Shown here: piece by piece, positions 7,065 through 33,091 of the stretch
Numbering within the stretch: position 1 is the stretch's first letter
How the letters are laid out: the number at the start of each line of letters is the position of its first letter
Origin: a virus
Length of the DNA stretch: 33,091 nucleotides
Direction: 5' to 3' (one strand)
Virus genome (UHGV): UHGV-0073014
Notes under the pieces: model-generated
Seen by the model: only the letters and a program-made list of their open reading frames with translations
The model's database searches: none
What the model was told of the DNA's origin: nothing
Translations under genes and position numbers: made by a program

Positions 7065-7622
7065 TTAATTGCTCTTATTCGCCGGAAATTTTCTATAAAT
7101 GGTAGAAACGCCCACATCAAAAATCAGTGCAATACGCTGTCTTGATTCTCCAGCCTCAAGTAAACGCCCAATCTGTGCCCACTGTTCAGCTGTCAACTTA
7201 GGACGGCGTCCACCTACTCTACCTTTAGCACGAGCTGCAGCCAGCCCCGCCCTGGTACGTTCAACTATCAGTTCGCGTTCCATTTCAGCCAGGGCACCCA
7301 TGACATGAAAAAAGAAACGGCCCATTGGGGTGCTGGTATCAATACTGTCAGTCAGGCTTCGGAAATTCACGCCACGCTGGCGCAGCTCTTCTATCAGCGT
7401 AACGAGATGCCGCATACTGCGCCCCAGTCTGTCCAGCTTCCAGACAACCAGCGTGTCTCCTGCCGATAGTGTCCTGAGCAGCTTTTTCAGCCCCGGTCTG
7501 TCGGACTTGGTGCCACTGATTTTATCCTCAAAAATCCGCTCACATCCCGCGCAGTTCAGTGCATTACGTTGCAAATCGGTGTTCTGGTCATTTGTTGACA
7601 CGCGTACATAGCCAATAAGCAT
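7065..7622 (-). CDS. serine DNA invertase (Gin/Pin/Hin/Cin family)
   Basis: 185 aa, N-terminus MLIGYVRVSTNDQNTDLQ with the catalytic Ser context, C-terminal HTH; sits just outside an inverted-repeat-bounded segment. Confidence 0.95.
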   Translation of the reverse strand: MLIGYVRVSTNDQNTDLQRNALNCAGCERIFEDKISGTKSDRPGLKKLLRTLSAGDTLVVWKLDRLGRSMRHLVTLIEELRQRGVNFRSLTDSIDTSTPMGRFFFHVMGALAEMERELIVERTRAGLAAARAKGRVGGRRPKLTAEQWAQIGRLLEAGESRQRIALIFDVGVSTIYRKFPANKSN

Positions 7623-7632: not shown

Positions 7633-7688
7633 TGAATAAAAACCGGAGATGATGCCAGTTAGCCGTTATCTCTGCATTTTCATAAACG

Positions 7689-7722
7689 TTGGTTTGGGAG
7701 AAGCGGCAAAACGGAATGTAGG
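7689..7722. repeat. left inverted repeat / invertase crossover site
   Basis: TTGGTTTGGGAGAAGCGGCAAAACGGAATGTAGG, exact reverse complement of 9236..9269; encodes the shared motif [11 protein letters not shown]. Confidence 0.85.
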
Positions 7723-8056
7723 TAACGGGCAAAACCAAATTCCGGATATGGCGGCGTTTGCCAGTTCACTTTCATCAACGGGTTTTCAAAAACTCCCTTC
7801 AGGTCTGATTATTCAGTGGGGTATTGTCAGTGGAGCATCAAACTATACGGTGACTTACCCGGTAACATTCCCAAATCGTTCACTTGCGCTGTTGGCTGTG
7901 CCACATACAACGTCGGTGGCTAGTATATCTGCAATGGGCATAGCGAACTGTTCTGATATCAGCAAATCACAGTTCTATATAATTGTTGGCGGTATATCTC
8001 AGGGAGAAATTGTCAAACATGAAAGGTCCTGTTTTTGGGTAGCAATCGGTGTATAG
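7723..8056 (+). CDS. alternative (currently unexpressed) tail-fibre C-terminal module
   Basis: Open frame continuing from the crossover motif ([10 protein letters not shown]...) parallel to the H C-terminus (GTGENQIPDM...); no promoter or start of its own. Confidence 0.7.
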
Positions 8057-8064
8057 GTATATCT

Positions 8065-8460
8065 ATGATTTATTTCTCAAAATCGACTAATGGTTTTTTC
8101 TTTGATGGTATAAACAGCGGCATGCCTGCTGACATTGTTGAGATAAGTACAGACTTATACAATGAATTAATTGCCGGACAGCAGGAAGGGGGTAAATTAA
8201 TCACGTCAGATGAAAATGGTTTACCGGTACTGAAATCTCCGGCGATTGATTATGTCGCACGTGCTGAAAATCAGCGAATGCAGTTACTTGCTCATGCCGA
8301 TAATGTCACAGCTGACTGGCGGGTGGAATTAATGCTTGGTGATATCAGCAGTACAGATAAAGAAAAACTATCTGCCTGGATGGACTACAAAAAAGAAGTA
8401 AAAGCCGTCGACACTTCGACGGCTCCTGAGATTAGCTGGCCTGAGTTACCGGAGATGTAG
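8065..8460 (+). CDS. tail-fibre assembly protein, partner of the alternative module
   Basis: About 131 aa; C-terminal DTSTAPEISWPELP motif shared with the convergent gene 8432..8875. Confidence 0.7.
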   Translation: MIYFSKSTNGFFFDGINSGMPADIVEISTDLYNELIAGQQEGGKLITSDENGLPVLKSPAIDYVARAENQRMQLLAHADNVTADWRVELMLGDISSTDKEKLSAWMDYKKEVKAVDTSTAPEISWPELPEM

Positions 8461-8875
8461 GCCATTCAATATCTGGAGCACTGGAGGTATCCACCAGTTC
8501 CAGTGCGTCCAGGTAATCCAGCCACAAATTATATTGCGCCAGTTCCTCACCTTTCAGACGACCAATAGCTGCTTTGCCAGGCCATTGCTTACTGTTCATG
8601 TATTCGTTAGCCTGGTTAATTAGTAGCTGTCTTTCTGATTCAGTAATTTCAATAAGCTCTTCATGCGTGGGTGGAGGAATATCTGCCCACGCAGGCAGCC
8701 CATCATCTCCGGCAATACGGATTTTTCCTTGTGGCGGTTCAGCCATAAACTCACTGATAATATTTTGATTTACTTCCTTTGCGTCTGATAAATCCCATCC
8801 CTCTGATTTATATTTATCAATCATATCCACAGGGAAAAAAGCATTATGCCTTGCGCTATAAACATATTTGTGCAT
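8432..8875 (-). CDS. tail-fibre assembly protein (gpG-like), expressed orientation
   Basis: Directly downstream of H; conserved C-terminal motif DTSSAPDIEWP. Confidence 0.8.
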   Translation of the reverse strand: MHKYVYSARHNAFFPVDMIDKYKSEGWDLSDAKEVNQNIISEFMAEPPQGKIRIAGDDGLPAWADIPPPTHEELIEITESERQLLINQANEYMNSKQWPGKAAIGRLKGEELAQYNLWLDYLDALELVDTSSAPDIEWPTSPVTQAS

Positions 8876-8895
8876 ATAAATCACCCTGAATAAAA

Positions 8896-10317
8896 TTACT
8901 CACCAACAGCCCACCAACTGTAATTCATCGATACTGTGGAGCTGGTTGATGCAGTTCTGTAAGCGGAATTAAAACCGGTTAGTGTTGGACCTTCTGCAGT
9001 CATCACGAATCCCCGTCCAGCGCCTAAAGGCGCACCACCATCACCAGAATGGGTAAGCATGGCGCAGTCCACTTTTTTAGGAAAAGGGATGCTGAATGTA
9101 ATTCTCATTGTTTGCGTCGATAATGTCGGCGTAATCGCACCACGACCATATTGCAGGATTTTCCCGTTGGGTAATTTCATCCATCCATCACCACTGGCAA
9201 AAGAGGTCATGTCCGGTATCTGATTTTCCCCTGTTCCTACATTCCGTTTTGCCGCTTCTCCCAAACCAAGGTATGTGAGAAGACCAGCTACATCCTTTCC
9301 ACTCAAATTAGTCAGCGTATTGTCCAGCGGTTGTTTACCTGCCAGCGCATTAAGCATTGTCGTGGCAAAGTTCGGGTCATTCCCCAGCGCTGCCGCCAGT
9401 TCGTTCAGTGTATCCAGTGCCGCAGGTGCAGAGCCCACCATTGCCGCAATCGCCGATTTCACAAAAGCCGTAGTGGCAATCTGTGTATTGTTGACCGACT
9501 GCGCCGCCGTGGGGGCTGTTGGCGTTCCGGTGAGTGCCGGACTCGACAACGGTGCTTTTAGTGCCAGCGCATTGTTAATGGTGGTACTGAAATTCGGATC
9601 ATTGTTAATGGCTGCGGCTATTTCTTTCAGCGTGTCCAGCGTGGCTGGCGCACCATTAATAAGGGCCGTCAGTGCCGCCTGTACAAACGCAGTGGTCGCA
9701 ACCTGCGTGGTATTATTCCCCGCCGCTGGCGTTGGCGCTTTTGGTTCTCCGGTAAATGTCGGATTATGTTTCTGCGCATACTGGGTATGAGGATCTTGTG
9801 CGGCAATGTGGTTTCTCATCTGGTCATCCACATACAGCTTTAATTCCAGGACTTTATCATCCACGTATTTACGGGTTGCCAGCACTACAGCAGGGTCGAT
9901 TTTCAGGATGATATTGTCCGTGCTGCTGGTAATCAGCACCATGCGCACGGTCTGGGTACGCCCGCTGCCTTCAGCCAGTTGCGGCTTATAGCTTTCCGGG
10001 CAGTTTCCCACGGCAATCAATGCCCCGGACTCATCAAACAGGCCCACTTCACGTATCCACCAACCGCCCTCGTTTTCAGGGATCACCTGTTCAGCAATAA
10101 TCTGGCTACTGTTCTGCGGGTCGATATAAAGCATATTCAGCGCAGCCCGGCGTTTCTCATTTACCAGTGCCGTCTGCTTTGCGTCCGGCGTTGGCAATAC
10201 TCCGCCGCCATCGCCCACCGCCATATGGGTAATTTTTAGCGGCACACCGAGCGCGGCGGCGCTGGCAAGTTTCGCCGCGCCAATATCCGTCAGCAGGGTA
10301 TAAAATTTTGTGCTCAT
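8896..10317 (-). CDS. H: tail fibre protein H (constant N-terminal part 9270..10317, variable C-terminal part inside the invertible segment)
   Basis: 473 aa ORF with a Thr/Ala-rich repetitive fibre region; the crossover repeat lies in-frame. Confidence 0.9.
   Translation of the reverse strand: MSTKFYTLLTDIGAAKLASAAALGVPLKITHMAVGDGGGVLPTPDAKQTALVNEKRRAALNMLYIDPQNSSQIIAEQVIPENEGGWWIREVGLFDESGALIAVGNCPESYKPQLAEGSGRTQTVRMVLITSSTDNIILKIDPAVVLATRKYVDDKVLELKLYVDDQMRNHIAAQDPHTQYAQKHNPTFTGEPKAPTPAAGNNTTQVATTAFVQAALTALINGAPATLDTLKEIAAAINNDPNFSTTINNALALKAPLSSPALTGTPTAPTAAQSVNNTQIATTAFVKSAIAAMVGSAPAALDTLNELAAALGNDPNFATTMLNALAGKQPLDNTLTNLSGKDVAGLLTYLGLGEAAKRNVGTGENQIPDMTSFASGDGWMKLPNGKILQYGRGAITPTLSTQTMRITFSIPFPKKVDCAMLTHSGDGGAPLGAGRGFVMTAEGPTLTGFNSAYRTASTSSTVSMNYSWWAVGE
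9236..9269. repeat. right inverted repeat / invertase crossover site
   Basis: Exact reverse complement of 7689..7722, inside the tail-fibre H coding sequence. Confidence 0.85.
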
Positions 10318-16054: not shown

Positions 16055-16705
16055 TCAGCGGCTGTCATTGCGCAGTCTGCGCTCCAGCTGCTGTTTGTCT
16101 TTTTTCACGCCACAGCGGGGATCGAGCTGTAACGCATGGTTGAGATGATTAAGGGCGGAAGCCGGATTGCTTTCACTCAGGACAGCGCCAATCGCTTTAT
16201 GCAGACGCGCCCGTGACTGGTCCGGCATATCCAGACCGTCTGTCAGCTCCAGCGTCTGCAGCAACAGATCGGCATCAAAGCCGGTAGCGGCAAGCATTGC
16301 GCTCTGCGCTGCATCTGCCATTTCCTCTGCCAGCACGGTCTGCACGTTGCGGTTACCCAGAGGCATCACCCAGCCATGACGCAGGGCATGACGCCCGATC
16401 TCCAGCGCCCCGGCATAATCTCCGGCATCAATGCGCCACAGCATCACGTACATCAGCACGTCATCCTGTTGAGCGCCTCCGGCAGCCAGGACGCCCTCCG
16501 CCCAGGCGGCATATTTCGGCAGCAGCTCCACCTTTATTTCCGCTTTTTTCACCGTGGACTGAACGCCCTTGAGACGGCGGCGGTCTTCCGCCAGCTGCAG
16601 CAGCATCAGGTCATAGCCCGACGCGTGGCGAACACTGCCGCCCTCACGGGCGGCCTGTTCAGCCTGAACGCGCAGGCGATGCTGCCGTGCGGGACTCAGG
16701 CTCAT
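16055..16705 (-). CDS. M: terminase small/endonuclease subunit M
   Basis: 216 aa ORF at the P2 gpM position. Confidence 0.85.
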   Translation of the reverse strand: MSLSPARQHRLRVQAEQAAREGGSVRHASGYDLMLLQLAEDRRRLKGVQSTVKKAEIKVELLPKYAAWAEGVLAAGGAQQDDVLMYVMLWRIDAGDYAGALEIGRHALRHGWVMPLGNRNVQTVLAEEMADAAQSAMLAATGFDADLLLQTLELTDGLDMPDQSRARLHKAIGAVLSESNPASALNHLNHALQLDPRCGVKKDKQQLERRLRNDSR

Positions 16706-18759: not shown

Positions 18760-20526
18760 ATGAACACCACACTGACACCCGCAGATCTCGATCCCCGTCG
18801 GCAGGCCATGCTGCTGTACTTTCAGGGATACCGCGTAGCCCGCATTGCTGAAATGCTGGGCGAGAAAGTTGCAACCGTTCACAGCTGGAAAAAACGCGAC
18901 AAGTGGGGTGACTATGGGCCGCTGGATCAGATGCAGCTCACCACCGCCGCACGCTACTGCCAGCTCATTATGAAGGAGCACAAAGAAGGGAAAGATTTCA
19001 AAGAGATTGACCTGCTGGCGCGCCAGTCGGAGCGCCATGCGCGGATCGGCAAGTTTAACAATGGCGGCAACGAAGCCGACTTAAACCCTAACGTCGCCAA
19101 CCGCAACAAAGGCCCGCGCCGTCAGCCGGAAAAGAACGTTTTCACCGATGAACAGATTGAGAAGCTGGAAGAAATCTTCCATTCCTCCATGTTCAACTAC
19201 CAGCGCCACTGGTGGGAAGCCGGAAAAACCAACCGCATCCGCAACCTGCTGAAGTCACGCCAGATCGGCGCGACCTTCTATTTTGCCCGTGAAGCCCTGA
19301 TTGACGCCCTGCTAACCGGGCGTAACCAGATTTTCCTTTCCGCCAGTAAGGCACAGGCCCACGTCTTTAAGCAGTACATCATCGACTTCGCCAAAGAAGT
19401 GGAGGTGGAGCTGAAAGGCGATCCGATGGTGCTTCCTAACGGGGCCACGCTGTACTTCCTCGGCACCAATGCCCGCACGGCCCAGAGTTACCACGGCAAC
19501 CTGTATCTGGATGAATATTTCTGGATACCGAAATTCCAGGAGCTGCGCAAAGTGGCTTCCGGTATGGCTATTCACAAGAAATGGCGACAGACCTATTTTT
19601 CCACGCCATCCAGTCTGACACACAGTGCTTATCCGTTCTGGTCCGGTGCGCTGTTCAACCGTGGGCGCAACAGAGCCGATAAGGTGGACATCGACCTGTC
19701 CCACAGCAATCTGGCCCCCGGCCTGCTGTGCGCAGACGGGCAATACCGCCAGATAGTCACCGTGGAAGATGCGGTGCGCGGCGGCTGTAACCTGTTCGAC
19801 CTTGACCAGTTGCGCATGGAGTACAGCCCTGACGAATACCAGAACTTGCTGATGTGCGAGTTCGTGGACGATCTCGCGTCCGTGTTCCCGCTCAGCGAAT
19901 TGCAGGCGTGCATGGTGGACAGCTGGGAAGTCTGGACCGACTTTCATGCACTGGCCCTGCGCCCGTTTGGCTGGCGCGAAGTGTGGATCGGTTATGACCC
20001 GGCAAAAGGTACGCAGAACGGCGACAGCGCCGGATGCGTGGTGGTGGCACCGCCAGCCGTGCCAGGCGGTAAGTTCCGCATTCTTGAGCGTCACCAGTGG
20101 CGCGGAATGGACTTTCGCGCCCAGGCTGACGCCATCAAAAAACTGACCGAACAGTACAACGTGACCTATATCGGCATCGACTCAACCGGCGTTGGTCACG
20201 GGGTTTACGAGAACGTGAAAGCGTTTTTTCCTGCCGTCCGGGAGTTTGTCTACAACCCCAACGTTAAAAACGCCCTGGTACTCAAGGCCTACGACATTAT
20301 CAGCCACCGCCGTCTTGAGTTTGACGCCGGGCACACCGACATTGCGCAGTCATTCATGGCAATCCGTCGCGCCACCACCGCCAGCGGCAACCGCCCGACC
20401 TATGAAGCCAGCCGCAGCGAAGAAGCCAGCCATGCCGATCTGGCCTGGGCAACAATGCACGCACTGTTTAACGAACCACTGCAGGGCGAGTCCGCCAATA
20501 CCAGCAATATTGTGGAGATTTTTTGA
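18760..20526 (+). CDS. P: terminase large (ATPase) subunit P
   Basis: 588 aa ORF, P2 gpP-like, divergent from O. Confidence 0.9.
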   Translation: MNTTLTPADLDPRRQAMLLYFQGYRVARIAEMLGEKVATVHSWKKRDKWGDYGPLDQMQLTTAARYCQLIMKEHKEGKDFKEIDLLARQSERHARIGKFNNGGNEADLNPNVANRNKGPRRQPEKNVFTDEQIEKLEEIFHSSMFNYQRHWWEAGKTNRIRNLLKSRQIGATFYFAREALIDALLTGRNQIFLSASKAQAHVFKQYIIDFAKEVEVELKGDPMVLPNGATLYFLGTNARTAQSYHGNLYLDEYFWIPKFQELRKVASGMAIHKKWRQTYFSTPSSLTHSAYPFWSGALFNRGRNRADKVDIDLSHSNLAPGLLCADGQYRQIVTVEDAVRGGCNLFDLDQLRMEYSPDEYQNLLMCEFVDDLASVFPLSELQACMVDSWEVWTDFHALALRPFGWREVWIGYDPAKGTQNGDSAGCVVVAPPAVPGGKFRILERHQWRGMDFRAQADAIKKLTEQYNVTYIGIDSTGVGHGVYENVKAFFPAVREFVYNPNVKNALVLKAYDIISHRRLEFDAGHTDIAQSFMAIRRATTASGNRPTYEASRSEEASHADLAWATMHALFNEPLQGESANTSNIVEIF

Positions 20527-21551
20527 TGGGAAAGAGTAAGAAGAACCGCGCTACGGCGACGAAACAGATCCAGCATAAAAACCAGACTTCAGCCGAAGCA
20601 TTCAGCTTCGGTGATCCCGTTCCTGTTCTGGACCGCCGCGAACTGCTGGACTATGTGGAATGCGTACAGATGGACCGTTGGTATGAGCCACCAGTGAGTT
20701 TCGACGGTCTGGCGCGAACCTTCCGCGCCGCCGTACACCACAGCTCACCGATTGCAGTAAAGTGCAACATTCTGACCAGCACCTATATCCCTCACCCGTT
20801 GCTCAGCCAGCAGGCTTTTTCACGTTTTGTGCAGGACTATCTGGTATTTGGTAATGCCTACCTGGAGAAACGCACGAACCGCTTCGGTGAAGTTATCGCC
20901 CTTGAACCTGCCCTGGCAAAATACACTCGACGCGGATTAGACCTGGATACCTACTGGTTTGTGCAATACGGTATGGCAACCCAGCCGTATCAGTTCACGA
21001 AAGGCAGCATCTTTCATCTGATGGAACCGGATATTAATCAGGAGATCTACGGCCTGCCTGGCTATCTTTCTGCTATTCCATCCGCTCTGCTCAACGAGTC
21101 CGCAACGCTGTTCCGCCGGAAGTATTACATTAACGGCAGTCATGCAGGCTTCATCATGTACATGACCGATGCCGCGCAAAACCAGGAGGATGTGAACAAC
21201 CTCCGCAACGCAATGAAAAGCGCCAAAGGACCGGGTAACTTCCGCAACCTGTTTATGTACTCGCCTAACGGCAAAAAGGATGGGCTTCAGATCATTCCTC
21301 TGTCAGAAGTCGCGGCGAAGGATGAGTTTCTGAATATCAAAAATGTCAGCCGCGATGACATGATGGCAGCACATCGCGTACCGCCTCAGATGATGGGAAT
21401 TTTGCCGAATAATGTTGGTGGTTTTGGTGATGTGGAGAAGGCGAGCTGCGTCTTCGTAAGAAATGAACTATTACCACTTCAAAAAAGATTCATGGAAATA
21501 AACAGATGGCTTGGTCATGAAATTATAAATTTTGAAATATATACATTATAA
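20523..21551 (+). CDS. Q: portal protein Q; last ~30 codons are AT-rich
   Basis: 342 aa ORF, P2 gpQ-like; DNA composition turns AT-rich from about 21458. Confidence 0.85.
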   Translation: MMGKSKKNRATATKQIQHKNQTSAEAFSFGDPVPVLDRRELLDYVECVQMDRWYEPPVSFDGLARTFRAAVHHSSPIAVKCNILTSTYIPHPLLSQQAFSRFVQDYLVFGNAYLEKRTNRFGEVIALEPALAKYTRRGLDLDTYWFVQYGMATQPYQFTKGSIFHLMEPDINQEIYGLPGYLSAIPSALLNESATLFRRKYYINGSHAGFIMYMTDAAQNQEDVNNLRNAMKSAKGPGNFRNLFMYSPNGKKDGLQIIPLSEVAAKDEFLNIKNVSRDDMMAAHRVPPQMMGILPNNVGGFGDVEKASCVFVRNELLPLQKRFMEINRWLGHEIINFEIYTL

Positions 21552-21556
21552 AACCC

Positions 21557-21579
21557 AACGGCATCACAATGATGCCGTT
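21557..21579. terminator. hairpin between convergent Q and the PIN-like gene, possibly bidirectional terminator
   Basis: AACGGCATC-ACAAT-GATGCCGTT, 9 bp stem with T/A-rich flanks on both strands. Confidence 0.5.
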
Positions 21580-21588
21580 ATGAACTAA

Positions 21589-22650
21589 TTAATATTCAAA
21601 ATTATTTTCTTCAATAGAGAACTCAATCCCTCGGGATAACTTATCAATATTCACATCAAATGCGATATCTGTTAATTCACCATCCTCGATTTCATACATA
21701 ACTTCAATTTCAATATCGAAACTAATCTCTTGAACTTCAGTTCGTGTGGTTGTCTCCATTGGAATCATTACTTTATCTTCGCTATCCCAATACCCATTAT
21801 TAAAGTCTGGACCAGAAACAGTAACTTCAAAATCTACAGAAACAGAGAAGGTCGCTAGACAATAATTATTGTTAATCTTAATTATTGATGGTTCAAAGTC
21901 ATCAATATTGACGACTTCAAATGAATCCAATTCAGCGTCTTCCCAAGTTGAAACGTTATATCCATCGGCATCATTGAGTTGGGCAATTACGTCCGCTCTT
22001 ATGTCTTCACGTTTGCTTTCGATAAACTGCATCAATTTATTACTTAATTCGTTTGTATGCGTATTGTATTCACCTAGAAACTTATCAAGTGAATCAATTT
22101 GATGAAGATTGTTTTTACCATCACAATAATTTTTTAAGTCACTATCCTCAGAAATGATATACACATCTTCATCATTAACAAATCGCTCTACCGCAGCTAA
22201 AGTGATTGCATCAGGAAACTCACTTTTTTTCTTATTTTGCCCAAATGGTGGTTCTTTGCCAAAGTATTTATCTAAAACCTCATTAAGATCTATTACTTCT
22301 ATTGTAGCTAATTTGGCGTGACATCCTTTCAAAAAATCATCAAAAACTTTTTGTGCTGCTTCGTGAATTTCATGTTCGTTAAATTGCTGAAAAAAACCAT
22401 GGAGCGGTCCATTATCAATACTATTCAAAAGCCTAGCTTTTCTTTGTACTGTGTTTATAGCCTGCAGAGCATCCTTTATTGATTCCTCTATTTTACCTTT
22501 TACTTCTCTCTCTACAACTGTAGTTGTAATTAAGACTAAATCACCTTTCGCACATAATTCATGGAAAGCTTTAAATGCTACCCCCTCAAAATGAAGACCA
22601 GCCTTTACGTACGTTTGTGTGTCAATAAATACCTTATTTGTTTTAAGCAT
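21589..22650 (-). CDS. PIN-like-domain protein with acidic beta-rich C-terminal domain; candidate defence/cargo gene
   Basis: 353 aa; N-terminus KVFIDTQTYV...LVLITTTVVEREVKGKIEE...EFPDAITLAAV...DVYIISEDSD fits a PIN-like nuclease pattern (conserved D, E, D); AT-rich; sits between portal Q and cos; candidate sigma70 promoter TTGATT-N17-TAATCT upstream. Confidence 0.6.
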   Translation of the reverse strand: MLKTNKVFIDTQTYVKAGLHFEGVAFKAFHELCAKGDLVLITTTVVEREVKGKIEESIKDALQAINTVQRKARLLNSIDNGPLHGFFQQFNEHEIHEAAQKVFDDFLKGCHAKLATIEVIDLNEVLDKYFGKEPPFGQNKKKSEFPDAITLAAVERFVNDEDVYIISEDSDLKNYCDGKNNLHQIDSLDKFLGEYNTHTNELSNKLMQFIESKREDIRADVIAQLNDADGYNVSTWEDAELDSFEVVNIDDFEPSIIKINNNYCLATFSVSVDFEVTVSGPDFNNGYWDSEDKVMIPMETTTRTEVQEISFDIEIEVMYEIEDGELTDIAFDVNIDKLSRGIEFSIEENNFEY

Positions 22651-22775
22651 ACTAATCCTAATAAGTTTTAAGATCCGCTACAATTGTTTATGTTTATTTT
22701 TTATCAATAATCATACGTAGTTAAGATTATCCATGTCGAAAAATTAAATCAACTTCAATTTATCCTTAAGCGCGC

Positions 22776-22794
22776 GCTCGTATCCCCGCCACGC
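22776..22794 (-). other. cos-like cohesive-end sequence
   Basis: Minus strand reads GGCGTGGCGGGGATACGAG, close to the P2/186 19-nt cohesive end (GGCG(A/T)GGCGGGGAAAGCA-), recalled from memory; GC-rich patch within AT-rich cargo. Confidence 0.6.
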
Positions 22795-22843
22795 CTGCCC
22801 GCTTTGTGTAGTGGTTTTCATGCACCTGCATGACATAAGCAAA

Positions 22844-22863
22844 AGCCCGCCAGCTCTGGCGGG
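22844..22863 (-). terminator. Rho-independent terminator for minus-strand transcription from the HNH gene
   Basis: GCCCGCCA-GAGC-TGGCGGGC followed by TTTTGCTT on the minus strand. Confidence 0.6.
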
Positions 22864-22977
22864 CATCAGCAAAAACGATCCTCAAACGATCATGCGATTT
22901 CATGCGGCATAGACATGCGTTGGCAAAAATGCACGAAATACTCAGCTTATAGGAAATGGTCTTTTTCCAACCTCCAG

Positions 22978-23697
22978 TTAGCCAAAGCAGAAACCAATAT
23001 TGCAATTTGAAACTCCACAGTTGTGAAATTGATGTGGACCGACTCTTAGCTTGTGTTCGTCTCCTACAATCCGAGTCCCCTTAACCAACATATCTAATCT
23101 TTCCACAATCAATCTTTCAGGCGCATCAACTTTAATAATTAAACGAGGACCTTTCCTTTTTTCTATAATAGTTATTCTAGGACCGACAACCTGAACATCC
23201 CAATGCCTTGCACTACATACCCACTCATTCTTAATTAATTCAAGATTAACAATACCTTGACTATCGTAAAATTTACCCGAAATAAGAAAAGCATTATTTT
23301 CTTTTTCAATGGTTAACAATGGCTCATTTTGAAACATTATTGGTACAGTACAGGATTCAAACGTCGCACCACCAAATATTATTGTTGGATGCCTATCAGA
23401 AAAGTCCAATATATCGGCCACATTCCCTTTTTGTAAGGCTGCAGGAGATTCCATTGCTTTAATGATTTTCTCTTTAGAGTAAAGACGTTTCGTTACTTTC
23501 GCATGACACGTAGGACAAAGTAGTGCTATTGCATTTGGAGAGTGCTCCTTTGCATCAGCGTATGTGGGAATTACATGCTCATACTCAACAATGGGAGAAG
23601 CACAAACAACGCAACCGAAGCCACAGCGCTGCCTTACCTCCAGTTTTACAGGTTCAGGAATTGTTCTAGATAACCCATGCTTGTTAATAGTTGTCAT
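22978..23697 (-). CDS. HNH-endonuclease-domain protein with unknown C-terminal domain; candidate defence gene
   Basis: 239 aa; CGFGCVVC...EYEHVIP...NAIALLCPTCHAKVTK fits the HNH zinc-finger nuclease motif; AT-rich; SD AAGGTAAGG before the ATG; lies between the SOS operon and cos. Confidence 0.65.
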   Translation of the reverse strand: MTTINKHGLSRTIPEPVKLEVRQRCGFGCVVCASPIVEYEHVIPTYADAKEHSPNAIALLCPTCHAKVTKRLYSKEKIIKAMESPAALQKGNVADILDFSDRHPTIIFGGATFESCTVPIMFQNEPLLTIEKENNAFLISGKFYDSQGIVNLELIKNEWVCSARHWDVQVVGPRITIIEKRKGPRLIIKVDAPERLIVERLDMLVKGTRIVGDEHKLRVGPHQFHNCGVSNCNIGFCFG

Positions 23698-23735
23698 AAC
23701 CTTACCTTAAAACTTCGAGAAACCTTTTATATATT

Positions 23736-23750
23736 GATACTATATCAACT
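23736..23750. promoter_or_regulatory. palindrome TTGATA-CTA-TATCAA upstream of the HNH gene (possible operator or promoter element)
   Basis: Perfect 6 bp inverted arms with a 3 bp spacer, about 50 bp upstream of the HNH start. Confidence 0.3.
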
Positions 23751-23819
23751 AACGCCTCGCACAGCTCGTTGTTCAACCTTGCTGACGCCAGAAGCAAGTT
23801 CAGACGCCAGCAACGTTTC

Positions 23820-24053
23820 TTAATGCAGCCAGCTGTCGTCTTCCCACACCTTCTGCATAATTTTCATCACTTGTTTTCTTTCTTCGTCCAGTTGCAGTCC
23901 GGTCAGTTCCACACCGTTAGAGCTACCTTTACGGATACGAATTACCGTTTTGGGATACAGGGGGCGCAGATTGCGGTAAAGCTCGGATTCAAGGGCGTCC
24001 AGGGTAGACTGGCTAATCTTCTGCTCTTTATCGATCATTATTTCAATGCGCAT
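23820..24053 (-). CDS. DinI-family protein
   Basis: About 77 aa starting MRIEIMIDKE; resembles E. coli DinI (MRIEVTIAK...); SD GAGGTG upstream. Confidence 0.75.
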   Translation of the reverse strand: MRIEIMIDKEQKISQSTLDALESELYRNLRPLYPKTVIRIRKGSSNGVELTGLQLDEERKQVMKIMQKVWEDDSWLH

Positions 24054-24063
24054 AAAAGTCACC

Positions 24064-24252
24064 TCAGCTGATGACATCCATTGAGCGATTGTATTCGTGG
24101 GTTCTGATTTTCGCCATGAGTTCATCAGTCAGTTCAGAAACCCACTGCAAAGCCAGCCCCTTCTCTTCATCACTACACTCACTAGCCGCTACAAGCTTAA
24201 GAAAAAAATCAATGCGCTGGAGCTTCAAAGACTCCAAAAAATAGTCCTGCAT
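24064..24252 (-). CDS. small SOS-controlled protein, possible Tum-like antirepressor
   Basis: 62 aa, strong SD AGGAGG 5 nt before the ATG, directly downstream of a LexA box; the Tum assignment is by genomic context only. Confidence 0.5.
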   Translation of the reverse strand: MQDYFLESLKLQRIDFFLKLVAASECSDEEKGLALQWVSELTDELMAKIRTHEYNRSMDVIS

Positions 24253-24294
24253 CTTTCCTCCTATGACACCAAAGCAATACTGTATACATAACCA

Positions 24295-24310
24295 CTGTTT
24301 ATATTTACAG
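24295..24310 (-). promoter_or_regulatory. LexA (SOS) box overlapping the -10 of the promoter of the small-ORF/DinI operon
   Basis: Minus strand CTGTAAATATAAACAG (CTGT-N8-ACAG), with TTTACA upstream and TATACT overlapping the box as -35/-10 candidates. Confidence 0.75.
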
Positions 24311-24404
24311 TATATAATAATCTTACTGATGTAAAACGTTTTTTTACGCTGATCAGCCTGATATGCCTGGTATTATTAAGAGCACGAATTGTTAACCCGC
24401 GTAA

Positions 24405-26777
24405 TTAATACAGGTTTCGCCACTTATCATCTTCCTGCAAACGCTGGTTCCGATAGAAGATACGCAGGCCTGCTCCTGACGGAATACTGCCGCCGCGAAG
24501 CAGTAAATCGACCTCTTTCTCGCTGCCATCAAATCCCCTGGACTTCAGTTCATACACGAGCTGCTGTCGCTGATGATCTGTAATTCGCTGTTTGTAGTCT
24601 TTACGCCGTTTCGGTTTCACCAAGCGTAACCTTGCTGCCAGTTCCCGGCGCTCTTTTTTGCTCATACTGTGCAGGTAATCGTGCAACTCCTTGTCATCCA
24701 TGCGGGTGATATCCGTTCTGGTATCTCCATCAGCTGATTTGTCTTTCCCTTGTTGGTACAAATTTTCAGCAAGGGGACAGTTATTGCCACGAGTCCAAGG
24801 GGCGCAAGCGCCCTGGTCGGCTGCCGCCTCCTGAACATCAACGGCCTTACGAACCATTTTCCACTTCACGGCATGAGTGCAGATCTTGCCCTCTGCAATA
24901 GGTGACCAGATGCCATAAATACGAATGCCGTGATCGCCATAGGCGGTCGGCTCTTCGTTGATTTCATAAGCGGTTCTGATGAGGTGATATTTGCGGGGAA
25001 CCAGTACGCCGCCCTGCTTCATGATGTAGGTGGCAAAACAACCAGCATCAGCAGCAGCCAGGATGGCATCAAGGCGCGGGTTATCCAGTACCGGCGCACC
25101 TGCTTTTTTGTCCCCCTGTTGCCTTGCCGCCTGACCAGCCAGCAATCGCAGTTCACGGTAAGCCTGACGCCCCGGAATGCCAAAGAAGCGGAATTGCTGA
25201 ACACGATGCAGAGACGCCCAGGCATTAACGTATTCAGCATTATCACGCAGGGATTTCCCCGTTTCCTTGCTGATCTCGCCAGCCAGACCACGCCCGTCAA
25301 TGTTCTTACTGATGTATTTCGCGATGTAGCTTGTTGGCGTACCTTTGCGCGGGTTAATCAACTCAGACTTAAAGCGCGGCCCAGTGTTATTGCCCAGTTC
25401 CTCGCGGTCTTCACGGATGGCAAACTTACGCAGTAATGCAGTGATGGCGCGGCGGTCTTTTTTGCGCATAAAACACAACAGGTGCCAGTGAACTGTACCG
25501 TCATGATGCGGCTCAGCCACCCGCACGCCATACCACCGCAATCCGGCTTTGTGCATCGCCTTACGAAATGTAGCAAACATGCCGACCAGATAATCACTGC
25601 TTTGTCTTACCGTCGCATTTGTCCAGGTCGGGTTGGGCCTGCCATTATTTAGCGTGGAATGGAAACGTGACGGACAGGTGATGGTGTAGAAAACGGCGCA
25701 GTCACCGCGCATTTCCGCGATAAGCTCCAGGCCTTTAACACAGGCCATCATCTCATTGCGGCGATGCGCAGGGTTGCTGCTGCTGGCGTTTACCACATCC
25801 TCCATGTCCAGCGTGTCGCCGTCTTCGTTCACCAGTTCATGAGAACGAAAAAACTCCAGCGACTTACGGCGCTGCTCACGTTTATGCATCACGGCTTCAT
25901 AGCTGACATAGGGAGATGCTTTTTTGCTGACCAGGCAGACAGCACGCAACTGCTCTTCCCGCCATTCGCAACGCATCTTCCATAATTTCCGGTACCACCA
26001 GTCAGCGCACAACATACGCGCCAGCGAACCCGGAATGAGTTCATAGGGCACGGGTTTACGGCGGTTTCTTTTCCGGCGGAGTTGCTCAAACGCAGGCGGG
26101 ATGACATCCAGACGCAGGGTTTCCGCTGCCACCTTTTCCCATGTCTTGCGGATTTCTTCTGGCTTAACGTCATCGGTGACATACAAATCGCCACAAGCTG
26201 CATCAAGGCACATGCTCATATGCGCAGCTACCAGGGTGGACAGGCGTTTCACCTGATCCTGACTCATTTCAGGCAGGATCAGCAGGCCGTCCAGCCCTTC
26301 ATGGCTTGCCATAAAGCGAAAAGAAGTGGATAGCTGACAGTCGCGTACATGCTCCAGCCGTTCCAGACATGGCTTAATCGTCTCACGCAAATAGCGGGAA
26401 TAAGCCTTTGGCCTGCCCAGGCTGCTGAAGTATTCAATACGTTGCATCAGCGGCTTGCTGATATGGGAAGGCTGGGCATTGACGTCCGCCAGAATGACCA
26501 TATCTGGATTAAAACGCTGCTGCTCATGCGCCAGCTTTGCCCGACTAATGAGCTTATCCTGCTCCATTTCGCGCTGGACAGGATCACGGGATTCATTAAA
26601 GAAATAACGCTCCCAGACCTGATCGCTCAGTGCCTCGCGGCGCAGCTGTTCCTGCTCGTTATCGGCAGCGTACAGAGCGATCAGGTTTGAAAGCGCAGAA
26701 ACTGAAGATTGCTCTTCTGTCTCTACGTAAGGATTGATTGCTTTTTTCTCAGCATTCCAGGAATAGCTGTAGTTCAT
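24405..26777 (-). CDS. A: replication initiation protein A (rolling-circle nickase, P2 gpA-like)
   Basis: About 790 aa; start taken at MNYSYSW (26777), overlapping the stop of the upstream gene. Confidence 0.85.
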
Positions 26778-27607
26778 TACGCAATCTCCAGTTCGAGCTG
26801 TGAAGGCTGCAAACCATTCGACAGCCAATCAGAAACTGAAGGTGGGCGAACAGCTTCAATTGCACCTTTTAAAATTGCGCAACGGTTTTTCAGAATGACA
26901 GCTTTCAGCTCCTTTTCCGTCAGATTGCGCGAATACTCAGCCTCCTGAATAGCCCGCGTCAGCTCAGGATATTTGCTATTAAATTTGGGGACATTGCAGG
27001 CAAGATTTGTACTGTCGGCAGTCGCCAGTGGGTAATTTCCCAACACACGACCGTCAAGCATGCGCAAACCATGAACAGCTGTTTTGAAATTGTGTCGGCA
27101 ATAAATTGCTTCAAAAGCGTCCTGCATACGACGATGCCAGTGCGCAGTTCTGATAGCCGCATATTCACCAGACGATCCAAAGCAGACACGAGGCCATTCA
27201 CGACATAGCTCGATAAGCCGATCGATTGACTCGTGCATATGCCAGACGGGAGTTGCCTTCCCGTAGAACATTTTCGGAACTTCGTTTATCAGGGCATCAT
27301 TGTCACGTTCACCTCCGTCCACAACATCAGGAATGACAAAAAAAGCGACCTTAGGATGGTGGTAATAGTTCAGGAGCCATTTATAAAAATCACTCCAGTT
27401 AATTTTTAGCCCACGCACCCATGCAGAAAATGCGCCGTTATCAATGCCGACGACCTGAGCGTGCTGAATGGACGCCGCAATCTGATCTGGTCGTACATAG
27501 GAGACGAAAGCGCCAGCTCCGCTCACCGCAATACGATGAACGTCGCCAGCACTTCCCCAGACAGGCGTCCCATGGAAATGATGAATTCCGTGGTGCATTT
27601 CTTTCAC
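26777..27607 (-). CDS. hypothetical protein, possible TGT/DpdA-like DNA-modifying enzyme
   Basis: 276 aa; local motifs PVWG...[12 protein letters not shown]...[10 protein letters not shown]...AVHGL loosely resemble the tRNA-guanine transglycosylase barrel (PVGT, DSGGF, GVG); translationally coupled to dam. Weak, unverified. Confidence 0.3.
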
Positions 27608-28458
27608 ACTTGCACCCCGAAAATAACAGTAGAGTCACGTCCCCTACTAAAATCGGCACTAAACCAATTAGCAGATTTAGTGGCAATCATCTCTGTTGCA
27701 AATTTTCCCTCCCCCGCTGCAACGCCGATGCTGCGTTTCGCCCTGATGTAGTGGTGAGTGAAATTACGATAAAGGGACCGGGTCAAAGACGTGTTACTGT
27801 TAGAAACAATGACCGGATGTCCTTCTGATGACCGATGTTCAAGAATGGATGCCAGGTGATACTGATCATCTTCAGTGAAACCATCAGTGTGATAGCCGGA
27901 AAACGTACCGTCATAAGGCGGATCGCAATACACCACATCCCCCACCTTCAACATCGCCAGCGTTTCATCAAAGCTGGCGCAGATAAACGTTGCCCGCTGG
28001 GCTTTCTCTGCAAATGCGCGAATTTCTTTTTCAGGGAAATACGGATTTTTATAATTACCGTAGGGAATGTTGAAATGTCCGCTCTTGTTATAGCGACATA
28101 AACCACGGTAACCGTGACGATTGAGATACAGGAAATATACCGCTTTCATGAAATCAGTAATTTCAGTGGAGTAATTAAACTCCTGCCTTATGTTGTAATA
28201 AGCTACCTCCCTGTTTGCTTCCTCAAATAAAGCTCTGGCACGAGATATAAACGCCTCACAATCAGCAGCAACCTTTTTATAGAGGTTGATTAAATCAGGA
28301 TTAATATCCGCAACAAGATAGCTGGGGTAATCCGTCTCCATCATCACTGCACAGGAACCCGCGAAAGGTTCAACCAGTCGCGGGCCAGCAGGAAGATGCT
28401 TTTTCAGTTCGGACATTATGGCGGTTTTATTTCCTGCCCATTTCAGGATGGTGCTCAT
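27604..28458 (-). CDS. dam: DNA adenine methyltransferase (Dam-like)
   Basis: ILKWAGNK near the N-terminus and a DPPY catalytic motif; start at MSTILKW overlaps the upstream stop. Confidence 0.9.
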
Positions 28459-28682
28459 ACAGCACCTCCGTTGTAATGTTTGCCTTTCAGCTCTGCGATT
28501 TCCTGACAGGTAATGCAAAGCTGCACACCCGGAATGGCACGGCGGCGTGCTGGCGGAATTGGCGCTTCACACTCAACGCAAAGCACGCGGGACACGCCCG
28601 GCATTTTGGCACGGGCAGCACGGATATGGCGTTGGCGTTCTTCTTCAACGCGCTGCTGTACGAGATCCATTGCATCAGCCAT
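28455..28682 (-). CDS. TraR/DksA-family C4 zinc-finger protein
   Basis: 75 aa with CVEC-x16-CITC, as in phage TraR-like proteins. Confidence 0.75.
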   Translation of the reverse strand: MADAMDLVQQRVEEERQRHIRAARAKMPGVSRVLCVECEAPIPPARRRAIPGVQLCITCQEIAELKGKHYNGGAV

Positions 28683-30378: not shown

Positions 30379-30954
30379 GTGACCATGAATTTGGAGAAAG
30401 GCGGACGAGGCGCTATAGAGCGCATGGTAGAAGCTTATGGATTCAAAACTCGACAGGCGTTGTGCGATCATTTAGGAATCTCTAAAAGTACACTCGCCAC
30501 ACGCTACATGCGTGACTCATTCCCAGCAGAATGGGTAATCCAGTGCGCCCTTGAAACGGGCACCTCGCTTAATTGGCTCACAACCGGACATGGTTCAAAG
30601 CAAACTTCAGGTAATACAAATACTATGGAAGTTGCTAAATATGTATTATCTGATGGTGCCTTGCGTGAAGACGGTTTTTATATTTTTGATAAGGGGTTTC
30701 TACCCTCTACGTTTAAAAAACCTTTTGTCATCACAGATAACAATTCTGAATTTATTTGTGATAAAGAATTTGATGATATACGTGACGGTAAATGGGTAAT
30801 AAGTATTGATGGCGAAATAACAATCCGCGACATTACTCGTTTACCCGGTGGAAGAATCTTCGTTGAAGGTGGAAACAGAGCCTTCGAGTGCAAGATAGAA
30901 GATGTTGAAATAATTGGGAAAATTATAAGTTTAACAATTAAGTACGTTAGGTAA
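30379..30954 (+). CDS. cI: CI-like immunity repressor (186 CI family)
   Basis: 191 aa with N-terminal HTH; EAYGF and CALETG..L.WL.TG.G motifs recalled from 186 CI. Confidence 0.8.
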   Translation: MTMNLEKGGRGAIERMVEAYGFKTRQALCDHLGISKSTLATRYMRDSFPAEWVIQCALETGTSLNWLTTGHGSKQTSGNTNTMEVAKYVLSDGALREDGFYIFDKGFLPSTFKKPFVITDNNSEFICDKEFDDIRDGKWVISIDGEITIRDITRLPGGRIFVEGGNRAFECKIEDVEIIGKIISLTIKYVR

Positions 30955-30969
30955 TACCGGGAGGAAACT

Positions 30970-31161
30970 ATGCTTGGTAAGGTATTTTTTGTGGTTTTAT
31001 CATGCTCTTTGTTATTAAACCCACTAACTACCTATGCTAAAAATTATCCTTGTTCTGGGAAAAAGGGAGGTGTCTCTCACTGTACCTCCGATGGAAAGTT
31101 CGTTTGCAATGATGGAACTATTAGTAAATCAAAAAAAATCTGTACTAAAAACTCGCGATAA
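30970..31161 (+). CDS. small secreted Cys-rich protein (cargo between cI and int)
   Basis: 63 aa; signal peptide [23 protein letters not shown]; four Cys in the mature part; SD GGGAGG upstream; AT-rich. Confidence 0.5.
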
Positions 31162-31347
31162 ATTTTGCTTTTATATCTGCGCCTAATATAACAATGAGCC
31201 GCAGGCTAACCGCAAAAGTCACATACTCACATAGCAAAAAATAGCCAACTTCATTATGGCTTCAGTGAGATGTATGGTCGCAGGATTTCATACATTGACA
31301 CTGGTTATACATACAGTAAAAATGCTCTCTATTGGAGGGCATTTTTT

Positions 31348-32400
31348 ATGGCAGTACGAAAACTCACCACAGGAAAATGGCTTTGCGAATGTTACCCCGC
31401 CGGACGTAGTGGACGCCGTGTGCGTAAACAATTCGCCACCAAAGGCGAAGCTCTGGCTTTTGAGCGTCACACGATGGAAGAAACCGAAGCAAAGCCCTGG
31501 CTGGGCGAATCAGTGGATCGTCGGACATTGAAAGACGTGGTTGAGCTATGGTTCAAACTACATGGTAAATCTCTAACCGCTGGGCAGCATGTCTATGACA
31601 AATTGCTGTTGATGGTTGATGCTCTGGGCAATCCTCTTGCAACCGATCTCACCTCTAAAATGTTTGCCCACTATCGAGATAAACGCCTGACAGGCGAGAT
31701 CTACTTCAGCGAGAAATGGAAGAAAGGAGCAAGCCCGGTCACCATTAACCTGGAGCAAAGCTATCTAAGTAGTGTTTTTAGCGAACTATCCCGTCTGGGC
31801 GAATGGTCGTATCCGAACCCACTGGAGAACATGCGAAAATTCACCATCGCAGAAAAAGAGATGGCATGGCTTACCCATGAGCAGATTGTTGAATTGCTGG
31901 CTGATTGCAAACGTCAGGACCCAATTCTGGCACTGGTAGTTAAGATATGCTTAAGCACAGGCGCACGCTGGCGTGAAGCCGTAAATCTTACCCGCTCACA
32001 GGTGACCAAATACCGAATTACCTTTGTCAGAACGAAGGGGAAGAAAAACAGAAGCATCCCTATCAGTAAAGAGCTTTACGAAGAGATCATGGCGCTTGAT
32101 GGGTTCAATTTCTTCACAGACTGCTATTTTCAATTTTTATCCGTGATGGAAAAAACGTCTATCGTGCTCCCTCGCGGTCAACTGACACACGTTCTGCGCC
32201 ATACGTTTGCGGCGCACTTCATGATGTCGGGTGGAAACATTCTGGCCTTACAAAAAATTCTTGGACACCACGATATAAAAATGACTATGCGTTACGCACA
32301 TCTGGCACCGGATCATCTGGAAACGGCGCTCCGTTTCAATCCTCTGGCAACGCTGCCAAATGGCGACAAAGTGGCGGCAGCGGTTGGCATTACCCCGTAA
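31348..32400 (+). CDS. int: tyrosine integrase
   Basis: C-terminal catalytic signature R...HxLRHT...Y (HVLRHTFAAHF, MRYAHL); start at MAVRKLTTGKW preceded by GGAGGG. Confidence 0.9.
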   Translation: MAVRKLTTGKWLCECYPAGRSGRRVRKQFATKGEALAFERHTMEETEAKPWLGESVDRRTLKDVVELWFKLHGKSLTAGQHVYDKLLLMVDALGNPLATDLTSKMFAHYRDKRLTGEIYFSEKWKKGASPVTINLEQSYLSSVFSELSRLGEWSYPNPLENMRKFTIAEKEMAWLTHEQIVELLADCKRQDPILALVVKICLSTGARWREAVNLTRSQVTKYRITFVRTKGKKNRSIPISKELYEEIMALDGFNFFTDCYFQFLSVMEKTSIVLPRGQLTHVLRHTFAAHFMMSGGNILALQKILGHHDIKMTMRYAHLAPDHLETALRFNPLATLPNGDKVAAAVGITP

Positions 32401-32504
32401 TAACCACCACTGACCACCAATCCAACTTATTGTTTTTACTCTAACTTATTGTTTTCATTAACCCGTTTACATAAATGGGTTTTTTGTTATCTAAAACTTA
32501 TCTA
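32401..32504. other. putative prophage-host junction (att region) with direct repeats and an int terminator
   Basis: 13 bp direct repeat AACTTATTGTTTT at 32424..32436 and 32443..32455; ACCACCA twice; hairpin plus T6 at 32462..32486. Confidence 0.4.
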
Positions 32505-33071
32505 CTACCCTGCAACCCTCTCAACCATCCTCAAAATCTCCTCGCGCGATAGCGGCTTACGGTCGGTGACAAAATGCAGCGTCATCCCCTCAATAAACGC
32601 ATCAAGCGCGCGGGCGGTTCCGGGTTCAAACCATTGTTCGAGCGTTTGCTGACTGCGCTGCATCCAGTTTTGCATTACCGTTTTTAATAGCGGTTTTCGG
32701 CTAGCCAGCGCGTAGAGCTGGTACATCAGCTCCATATTATCCGGCGTTGCAACCTGTGAGCTGTAGATCATATCGGTGATAGCCTGGCATGCGCCTTGAG
32801 CATCACTAACATCGCTAAAAAATGCCTGATATTGCCGGGACATAATCTCAGTAAAACTGCTGAACGCCTCCAGCAACAACTCATCAATTCCTGAAAAATA
32901 GTAGGTCATCGATCCCAACGGTACCCCGGCAAGGGTAGCAATTTTGCGGTGCGTAACAGCATGTATTCCGTAAAGTTTCACCGCCTCCAGCGTGGCCTGG
33001 ATAATTTTTTCTCGCCGTTGCGGATCGTTAGCGCGACGCATGTCATTTCCTCTCTCTGCAATTGTGTACAA
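32505..33071 (-). CDS. TetR-family transcriptional regulator, likely host gene
   Basis: 188 aa with N-terminal TetR-type HTH ([20 protein letters not shown]); ordinary GC content, outside the phage gene order. Confidence 0.75.
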
Positions 33072-33091
33072 ATGTACACAACCTTGCTAAT

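Follow-up and report, generated by a model that had tools for sequence, protein, structure and literature searches.

A predicted P2-family cos packaging site between two cargo cassettes of a 186-like Escherichia coli prophage

In this study, we analysed a 33,091-nucleotide stretch of viral DNA (the window) and conclude that positions 22770-22918 are very probably the cos packaging site of a 186/Fels-2-like, P2-family (Peduoviridae) prophage carried by an E. coli chromosome. We make this assignment because of homology to described cohesive ends, synteny with the P2-family map, co-segregation of the cos variant with its phage lineage, and the borders of sequence conservation around the site. Both the cos site and the two accessory-gene positions have been described before, and such a site is routine for this common type of E. 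coli prophage; our modest addition is that a published "arrangement" of accessory genes at this locus consists of two independent cassettes split by cos.

Results

The cos core and its uniqueness

The centre of the site is a predicted 19-nt cohesive end (cosN), GGCGTGGCGGGGATACGAG, at 22795..22777 on the minus strand, recognised by homology to the cos of P2 and 186. Around it the minus strand reads ...AAAGCGGGCA GGCGTGGCGGGGATACGAG CGCGCGCTTAAGGATAAATTG..., also written as ...CATGCAGGTGCATGAAAACCACTACACAAAGCGGGCA then GGCGTGGCGGGGATACGAG then CGCGCGCTTAAGGATAAATTG. Directly 3' of the 19-mer, at 22776..22770 (minus strand), a YGCGCGC box (CGCGCGC in the window) forms the left-arm edge of the cos core; the box is also found in P2, 186, P4, SEN8, Cartapus and Smp131. 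On the other side, TGCATGAAAACCACTACACAAAGCGGGCA at 22796..22824 (minus strand) is the right-arm portion of the core, as defined by alignment with the right ends of P2, 186 and P4. The resulting interval, 22770-22824, is the window's version of the 55-bp block common to P2 and P4 and aligns without gaps to P2, 186 and P4; the passages of PMC3931495 and PMC5694545 that cite Ziermann & Calendar 1990 refer to this block as the "55-bp core". The window thus carries both a 19-nt G+C-rich end of the type GGCG(A/T)GGCGGGGA...... and the 55-bp core at its fixed spacing.

In the P2 record (NC_001895) cosL is annotated at 1-19 (GGCGAGGCGGGGAAAGCAC), and in the 186 record (NC_001317) cos is annotated at 1-19 (GGCGTGGCGGGGAAAGCAT), with the top strand cut at its 5' end and the bottom strand at its 3' end. 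Over its 19 nt, the window's end agrees with that of 186 at 15 positions, including an unbroken run of the first 13, and with that of P2 at 14. The initial annotation had remarked on the likeness of this minus-strand 19-mer, followed by CGCGCGC, to the P2/186 cohesive end, and alignment to the P2 and 186 termini bears it out for the 19-mer as well as for both flanks of the 55-bp core. The range then given, 22760-22800, is wide enough for the GCGCGC box and the 19-mer, whereas the conserved module as a whole continues as far as 22918.

Only one site in the 33-kb window matches the degenerate P2-family 19-mer pattern with at most two mismatches, where 0.01 would be expected by chance. The motif is short, which is what a coincidental G+C-rich match unrelated to packaging would call for; against that reading stand the low expectation per window, the alignment to P2, 186 and P4, the retention of the flanking 149-bp block in 88-119 phage records and the syntenic position beside Q, and we rejected it as having a negligible probability. 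We also dismissed the small open reading frames that overlap cos, since conservation there is at the level of DNA motifs and the block is non-coding in P2, 186 and P4. No Rfam family matched 21000-24500 at E <= 1.

Predicted nick positions

Borrowing the cut geometry annotated in the 186 record, we predict nicks between 22796 and 22795 on the minus strand and between 22777 and 22776 on the plus strand, which would leave 5' overhangs of 19 nt. The six 3' positions of the 19-mer are unlike those of P2 and 186, and positions 14-19 differ between lineages among the matches listed, as might be seen if the cos region were real but were nicked at other positions, or with another overhang length, than predicted. 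We consider this very improbable, since the GCGGGCA and YGCGCGC flanks are spaced exactly as in P2, 186 and P4, whose ends are annotated. The predicted 19-nt geometry can also be set beside the annotation of close relatives. The window's 26-mer lies inside a Cartapus feature described as a "putative cos site, homologous to the cos of P2 phage", the SEN8 cos is likewise annotated as putative, and Smp131, which differs from the 26-mer at one base, had its ends assigned "by analogy to the P2 case" (PMC3931495). These three annotations are themselves drawn from P2 by analogy, and the nick positions for the window's 19-mer variant are likewise predicted; we found no published determination of virion ends for this variant in the literature. 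The earlier statement that the site fixes the genome ends therefore holds by homology to P2 and 186, but for this 19-mer the ends are predicted ones.

A sharply bordered 149-bp module with an array of TGCAT boxes

The 55-bp core, a terminator hairpin and upstream TGCAT boxes together make up a conserved cos module of 149 bp (22770-22918, minus strand), delimited as a BLAST block. Its borders are sharp: in 54 of 64 sampled loci relatives cease to resemble the window at 22769/22770, and 35 viral loci, like the E. coli relatives, place the right border at 22918/22919; the block that BLAST recovers from GenBank phages begins and ends at these points too. Around cos, the isolated phages SEN8 and Cartapus have nothing but 22770-22918 in common with the window, as might be seen if this module were enough for packaging.

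To the right of the predicted cut, two proximal TGCA(T) boxes (ATGCAGGTGCAT; 22820..22832, minus strand) lie at about -36 and -29, and three distal (T)GCAT(G) boxes (22891..22919, minus strand), a candidate terminase-recognition array, lie at about -123, -110 and -100. We scanned IMG/VR viral contigs with a degenerate core pattern, which yielded a sample of at least 120 loci. The proximal boxes are in register in P2, 186, P4 and SEN8 and in 113-117 loci among the matches listed; the whole array, distal boxes included, keeps its distances from the cut in P2, 186, P4 and SEN8, although the sequence between the boxes differs, and is shared by about 115 viral loci among the matches listed. The columns of TGCAT.AAAACC (-29 to -18), which lay outside the constraint of the search pattern and were counted ungapped relative to the cut site, are 0.98-1.00 conserved in 113 unique loci among the matches listed. 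Also among the matches listed, ATGCA at -36 is 0.8-0.94 conserved, the terminator hairpin occupies about -66 to -47, and GCAT occurs in 0.86 of loci at -100, 0.80 at -110 and 0.62 at -123. The right arm holds 4.1 GCAT per 140 nt among the matches listed, as against 0.48 in the left arm and a random expectation of 0.55, and conservation drops to background at once to the left of GCGCGC. The simplest reading is that the terminase would recognise the right arm (TGCAT boxes, AAAACC and AAGCGGGCA) together with the 19-mer and the GCGCGC box, and the TGCAT boxes may serve as a terminase-binding array.

Within the module, the terminator GCCCGCCAGAGCTGGCGGGC, followed by TTTTGC (22864..22845, minus strand), ends right-arm transcription before cos, and the transcription unit of the HNH gene described below ends there. 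It aligns with CGCCAGAGCTGGCG, the terminator found upstream of cos in 186, and is the window's 186-like counterpart of t95b.

Co-segregation of the 19-mer with the packaging genes

The window encodes a cognate P2-type terminase, whose lineage the cos variant fits. Its large subunit, a gpP homologue, is encoded at 18760..20526 (plus strand; Pfam Terminase_5, Terminase_6N and Terminase_6C), and its small, endonuclease subunit, a gpM homologue, at 16055..16705 (minus strand; Pfam Phage_term_smal, E = 2.2e-40). Among the matches listed, the window's type of 19-mer is the commonest (36 loci), followed by the P2 type (34), ...ATAGCAT (21) and the 186 type (14). Loci with the window type have portals 75-95% identical to that of the window, at least 80% in 23 of 24, whereas the portals that accompany every other type are about 62% identical to it, in both cases among the matches listed. 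Co-segregation of this kind is the pattern expected of a functional cos matched to its own terminase.

The site also occupies the P2-family position on the map. The portal gene, a gpQ homologue identified by Pfam Phage_portal and by the RefSeq annotation of a near-identical prophage, converges on cos as in P2 (20523..21551, plus strand); beyond cos lie a DinI/Tum-like gene (23820..24125, minus strand; Pfam DinI, PHROG 189), which is the conserved right border of the right-hand slot, and a homologue of the replication gene A (24405..26828, minus strand; Pfam Phage_GPA, E = 2.3e-127). With the 19-mer read as GGCG..., the order on the gpA side is gpA, a small ORF, the DinI/Tum-like gene, the HNH gene, the terminator and cos, and beyond cos it is the PIN_12 gene, a terminator, Q (converging), P, the scaffold gene, the capsid gene and M. 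The layout is that of the P2/186 map, except for the additional genes that flank cos at left and right.

The surrounding prophage

Escherichia phage vB_EcoM-813R9 and the Klebsiella phages KP12 and 4LV2017 share about 96% identity with the window over long stretches, and a prophage that E. coli 2452 carries between ybjL and rcdA shares about 97%. Its architecture is 186-like, with CI, CII, Fil and the DinI/Tum-like gene, and we found no tRNA in the window. Because the P2-type structural and replication genes around the site are complete, we rejected an origin from a P4-like satellite.

The near-identical E. coli 2452 prophage has a tail-fibre pseudogene, and another relative has an internal stop in its gpA gene. 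The site could be a true cos by descent that is never cut, the relic of a defective prophage. In the window, however, intact open reading frames with full-length Pfam matches encode the portal protein, the two subunits of the terminase, gpA, the tail fibre, integrase and CI, and over the 26-nt core there is 100% identity to SEN8 and Cartapus, both of them isolated phages; we regard a relic as improbable and favour a working cos site.

Several other loci of the window vary or mark its limits. At its right end, 32357-33091 is host DNA with the gene of a TetR-family regulator, corresponding to the rcdA flank of the ybjL/rcdA integration site of E. coli. The window begins just inside the late gene D, and ogr and the other att site therefore lie outside it. 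The segment 7065-9281 is an invertible tail-fibre segment, in which a Hin/Gin-type serine recombinase (7065-7622, minus strand) adjoins inverted repeats at 7677-7765 and 9193-9281 (89 nt, 82% complementary). The repeats enclose an alternative tail-fibre C-terminus (7649-8056, plus strand) and an alternative assembly gene (8035-8460, plus strand), which face the expressed fibre gene (8896-10317, minus strand) and its assembly gene (8432-8884, minus strand); 7704-9254 is unlike the E. coli 2452 prophage, which is otherwise 97% identical. That prophage also differs at 26703-27682, between gpA and a Dam-type methylase gene (27604-28518); an ORF here (26777-27607, minus strand) encodes a 276-aa protein with no Pfam match, and the segment may be another small variable locus. 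After int, E. coli 2452 has about 350 bp extra, with a small hypothetical gene, that the window is without. Between the genes for the CI repressor (30379-30954) and the integrase (31270-32400), the stretch 30601-31200 is AT-rich (GC 0.35).

The left slot, between cos and Q

Cargo lies on both sides of cos, as the initial annotation had proposed, with an AT-rich PIN_12 gene and an HNH gene flanking the module. The PIN_12 gene (21589..22650, minus strand) reads away from cos and, on the linear virion chromosome, would lie furthest to the left. Its 353-aa product is a full-length member of the PIN_12/DUF4935 family (Pfam PIN_12, E = 1.6e-25) and is 99% identical to an E. coli protein cluster; searches of PADLOC, NCBIfam and PHROG gave no match to it, and those of PDB sequences no meaningful one. 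The family is widespread, with proteins of about 355 aa that are usually monocistronic. Upstream of the gene, the best sigma-70-like match of the region, TCGACA-18-TATGAT, lies at 22739..22710 (minus strand), a candidate promoter by match to the consensus, and a hairpin terminator (21580..21556, minus strand) separates the converging PIN_12 and Q genes. A single-gene integron system with a PIN_12 domain, Cosus/Brc24, protects against T7 and requires its PIN residues (bioRxiv 10.1101/2024.07.02.601719), and by analogy an anti-phage nuclease role is plausible for the PIN_12 gene of the window.

In relatives with an empty slot, GCGCGC is followed by about 110 bp and the Q terminator; in the window, foreign DNA in the form of the PIN_12 cassette, with a terminator of its own, replaces this sequence between cos and the portal terminator, as in a cos-Q foreign-gene slot of the Dodd & Egan 1996 type. 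The Q-cos position had been called unusual for cargo, a description that does not survive the survey. The cos-Q distance exceeds 380 bp in 21 of 25 sampled loci of the window's own portal/terminase lineage among the matches listed, and the distance from GCGCGC to Q, again among the matches listed, is 157-179 bp in the four "empty" loci of that lineage and 555-3377 bp in the 21 others. SEN8 and Cartapus carry genes there too, and the parts of PMC5694545 that cite Dodd & Egan 1996 and Nakayama 1999 treat the slot as a foreign-gene hotspot since 1996. P2-type loci are empty between cos and Q in 26 of 30 cases among the matches listed. Over all types, the slot is occupied, defined as a cos-to-Q distance above 230 bp, in 46 of the 94 loci with a Q gene among the matches listed.

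The last ~100 nt of Q (~21450-21551) are AT-rich, with GC down to 0.41, and divergent from relatives, which places the Q-side border of the cassette within the final codons of Q rather than in the intergenic DNA.

The right slot and the independence of the two cassettes

The right-slot cassette (22919..23748, minus strand) contains the HNH gene (22978-23697, minus strand) and is variable in E. coli relatives. The encoded 239-aa protein has an HNH/zinc-finger motif at its N terminus (Pfam HNH, E = 2.4e-5) and matches PHROG 6544 (E = 2.5e-111), a group with no assigned function; PADLOC, NCBIfam and PDB-sequence searches returned no meaningful match and no characterised relative.

Three prophages otherwise about 97% identical to the window vary at this slot with identical borders: 22919-23748 is replaced by 9 bp in strain D5, by a DUF2971 gene in NS-NP030 and by a DUF6236 gene in N18-04097. 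All three keep the PIN_12 gene and cos. Near-identical prophages therefore carry variable genes between conserved flanks, as in the gpA-gpQ hotspot. Both cassettes have a GC content of 31-36%, compared with 52-60% for the phage core. The PIN_12 and HNH cassettes assort independently among relatives, and the two genes are separate morons, not one two-gene system. Both are probably anti-phage or accessory genes expressed from the prophage.

Discussion

A packaging scheme that fits these observations can be outlined. After induction, the phage's own P2-type terminase (16055-16705 and 18760-20526) would recognise the module on replicated circular DNA and introduce nicks 19 bp apart, giving a linear virion chromosome with 5' GGCGTGGCGGGGATACGAG overhangs. 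The left arm would need nothing beyond GCGCGC, since almost all of the recognition information would lie in the right arm and in the 19-mer with its GCGCGC box. If recognition is confined to the module in this way, the DNA on either side would therefore be freely exchangeable, and two independent moron-type cassettes, the PIN_12 nuclease-domain gene by cosL and the HNH-motif gene by cosR, could have settled at its edges. Tentatively, and with more doubt than confidence, we extend this to a broader proposal: that the published gpA-gpQ hotspot is made up of two independently assorting slots split by a cos module with borders sharp to the base pair, that the TGCAT array could be the recognition element of gpM (an analogue of cosB), and that the module might also act as a recombination anchor for swaps of cargo between phages and satellites.

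Knowledge of cos fixes, by homology, the ends of the virion chromosome and the order of genes on it, and the borders at 22770 and 22918 give exact limits outside which cargo could be swapped or engineered with the packaging signal untouched. It also bears on how cargo is catalogued. A near-identical locus, NZ_CP031833 (WP_000207842, WP_000920990 PIN_12 and DinI), is listed in Table S5A of PMC9122126; this locus is 99.4% identical and has the same two cargo genes. The table enters HNH and PIN_12 as one "arrangement", yet cos lies between the two and each assorts independently of the other, and each cargo protein also appears in the same table with other partners. Catalogues based on gpA-gpQ content may thus merge unrelated left and right cassettes.

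In 186, positions 14, 16, 17 and 19 of the 19-mer differ from the window (AAGCAT in 186, TACGAG in the window). Both 186 and P2 have the right arm GTGCAT(T/G)AAAACC...AAG(C/T)GGGC(A/G) and the left arm (T/C)GCGCGC at a spacing equal to that of the window, and in both cos lies between the portal gene Q and right-end accessory genes, as it does here. Between cos and the Q terminator, however, 186 and P2 have a left arm of about 140 bp that is rich in G and T, where the window has a cargo cassette.

The P2 terminase also packages P4, and PMC9122126 describes the satellite as one that "shares a core cos packaging signal" with P2. P4 has only the cos block in common with P2 and diverges right after GCGCGC, as the window does; the satellite has the cos core and TGCAT boxes found in the window, with a variable AT-rich region that starts directly after GCGCGC. 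P4 is without portal and terminase genes, whereas the window represents a complete helper-type phage. Close counterparts are Salmonella phage SEN8 (KT630647.2; PMC5427200) and Escherichia phage Cartapus (OV696611.1), in which the 19-mer plus CGCGCGC is identical to the window and the right arm nearly so, and in which cargo again follows GCGCGC directly and reads away from cos. The cargo itself, a hypothetical protein and an HNH gene in SEN8 and a DUF4145 protein in Cartapus, is unlike that of the window.

The "cos-proximal" gpA-gpQ interval has been described as a defence hotspot of P2 (Rousset et al. 2022, PMC9122126) and is treated as one in a 2026 preprint as well. Neither cargo gene of the window fits a PADLOC model, in which they differ from the gpA-gpQ defence catalogue. 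The old/tin (TO) region and the cos-Q slot together form the hotspot of Rousset et al., and the interval in the window is likewise variable, AT-rich and filled mostly by single-gene cassettes. Their catalogue treats gpA-gpQ as a single locus, whereas in the window the interval consists of two slots divided by the 149-bp cos module.
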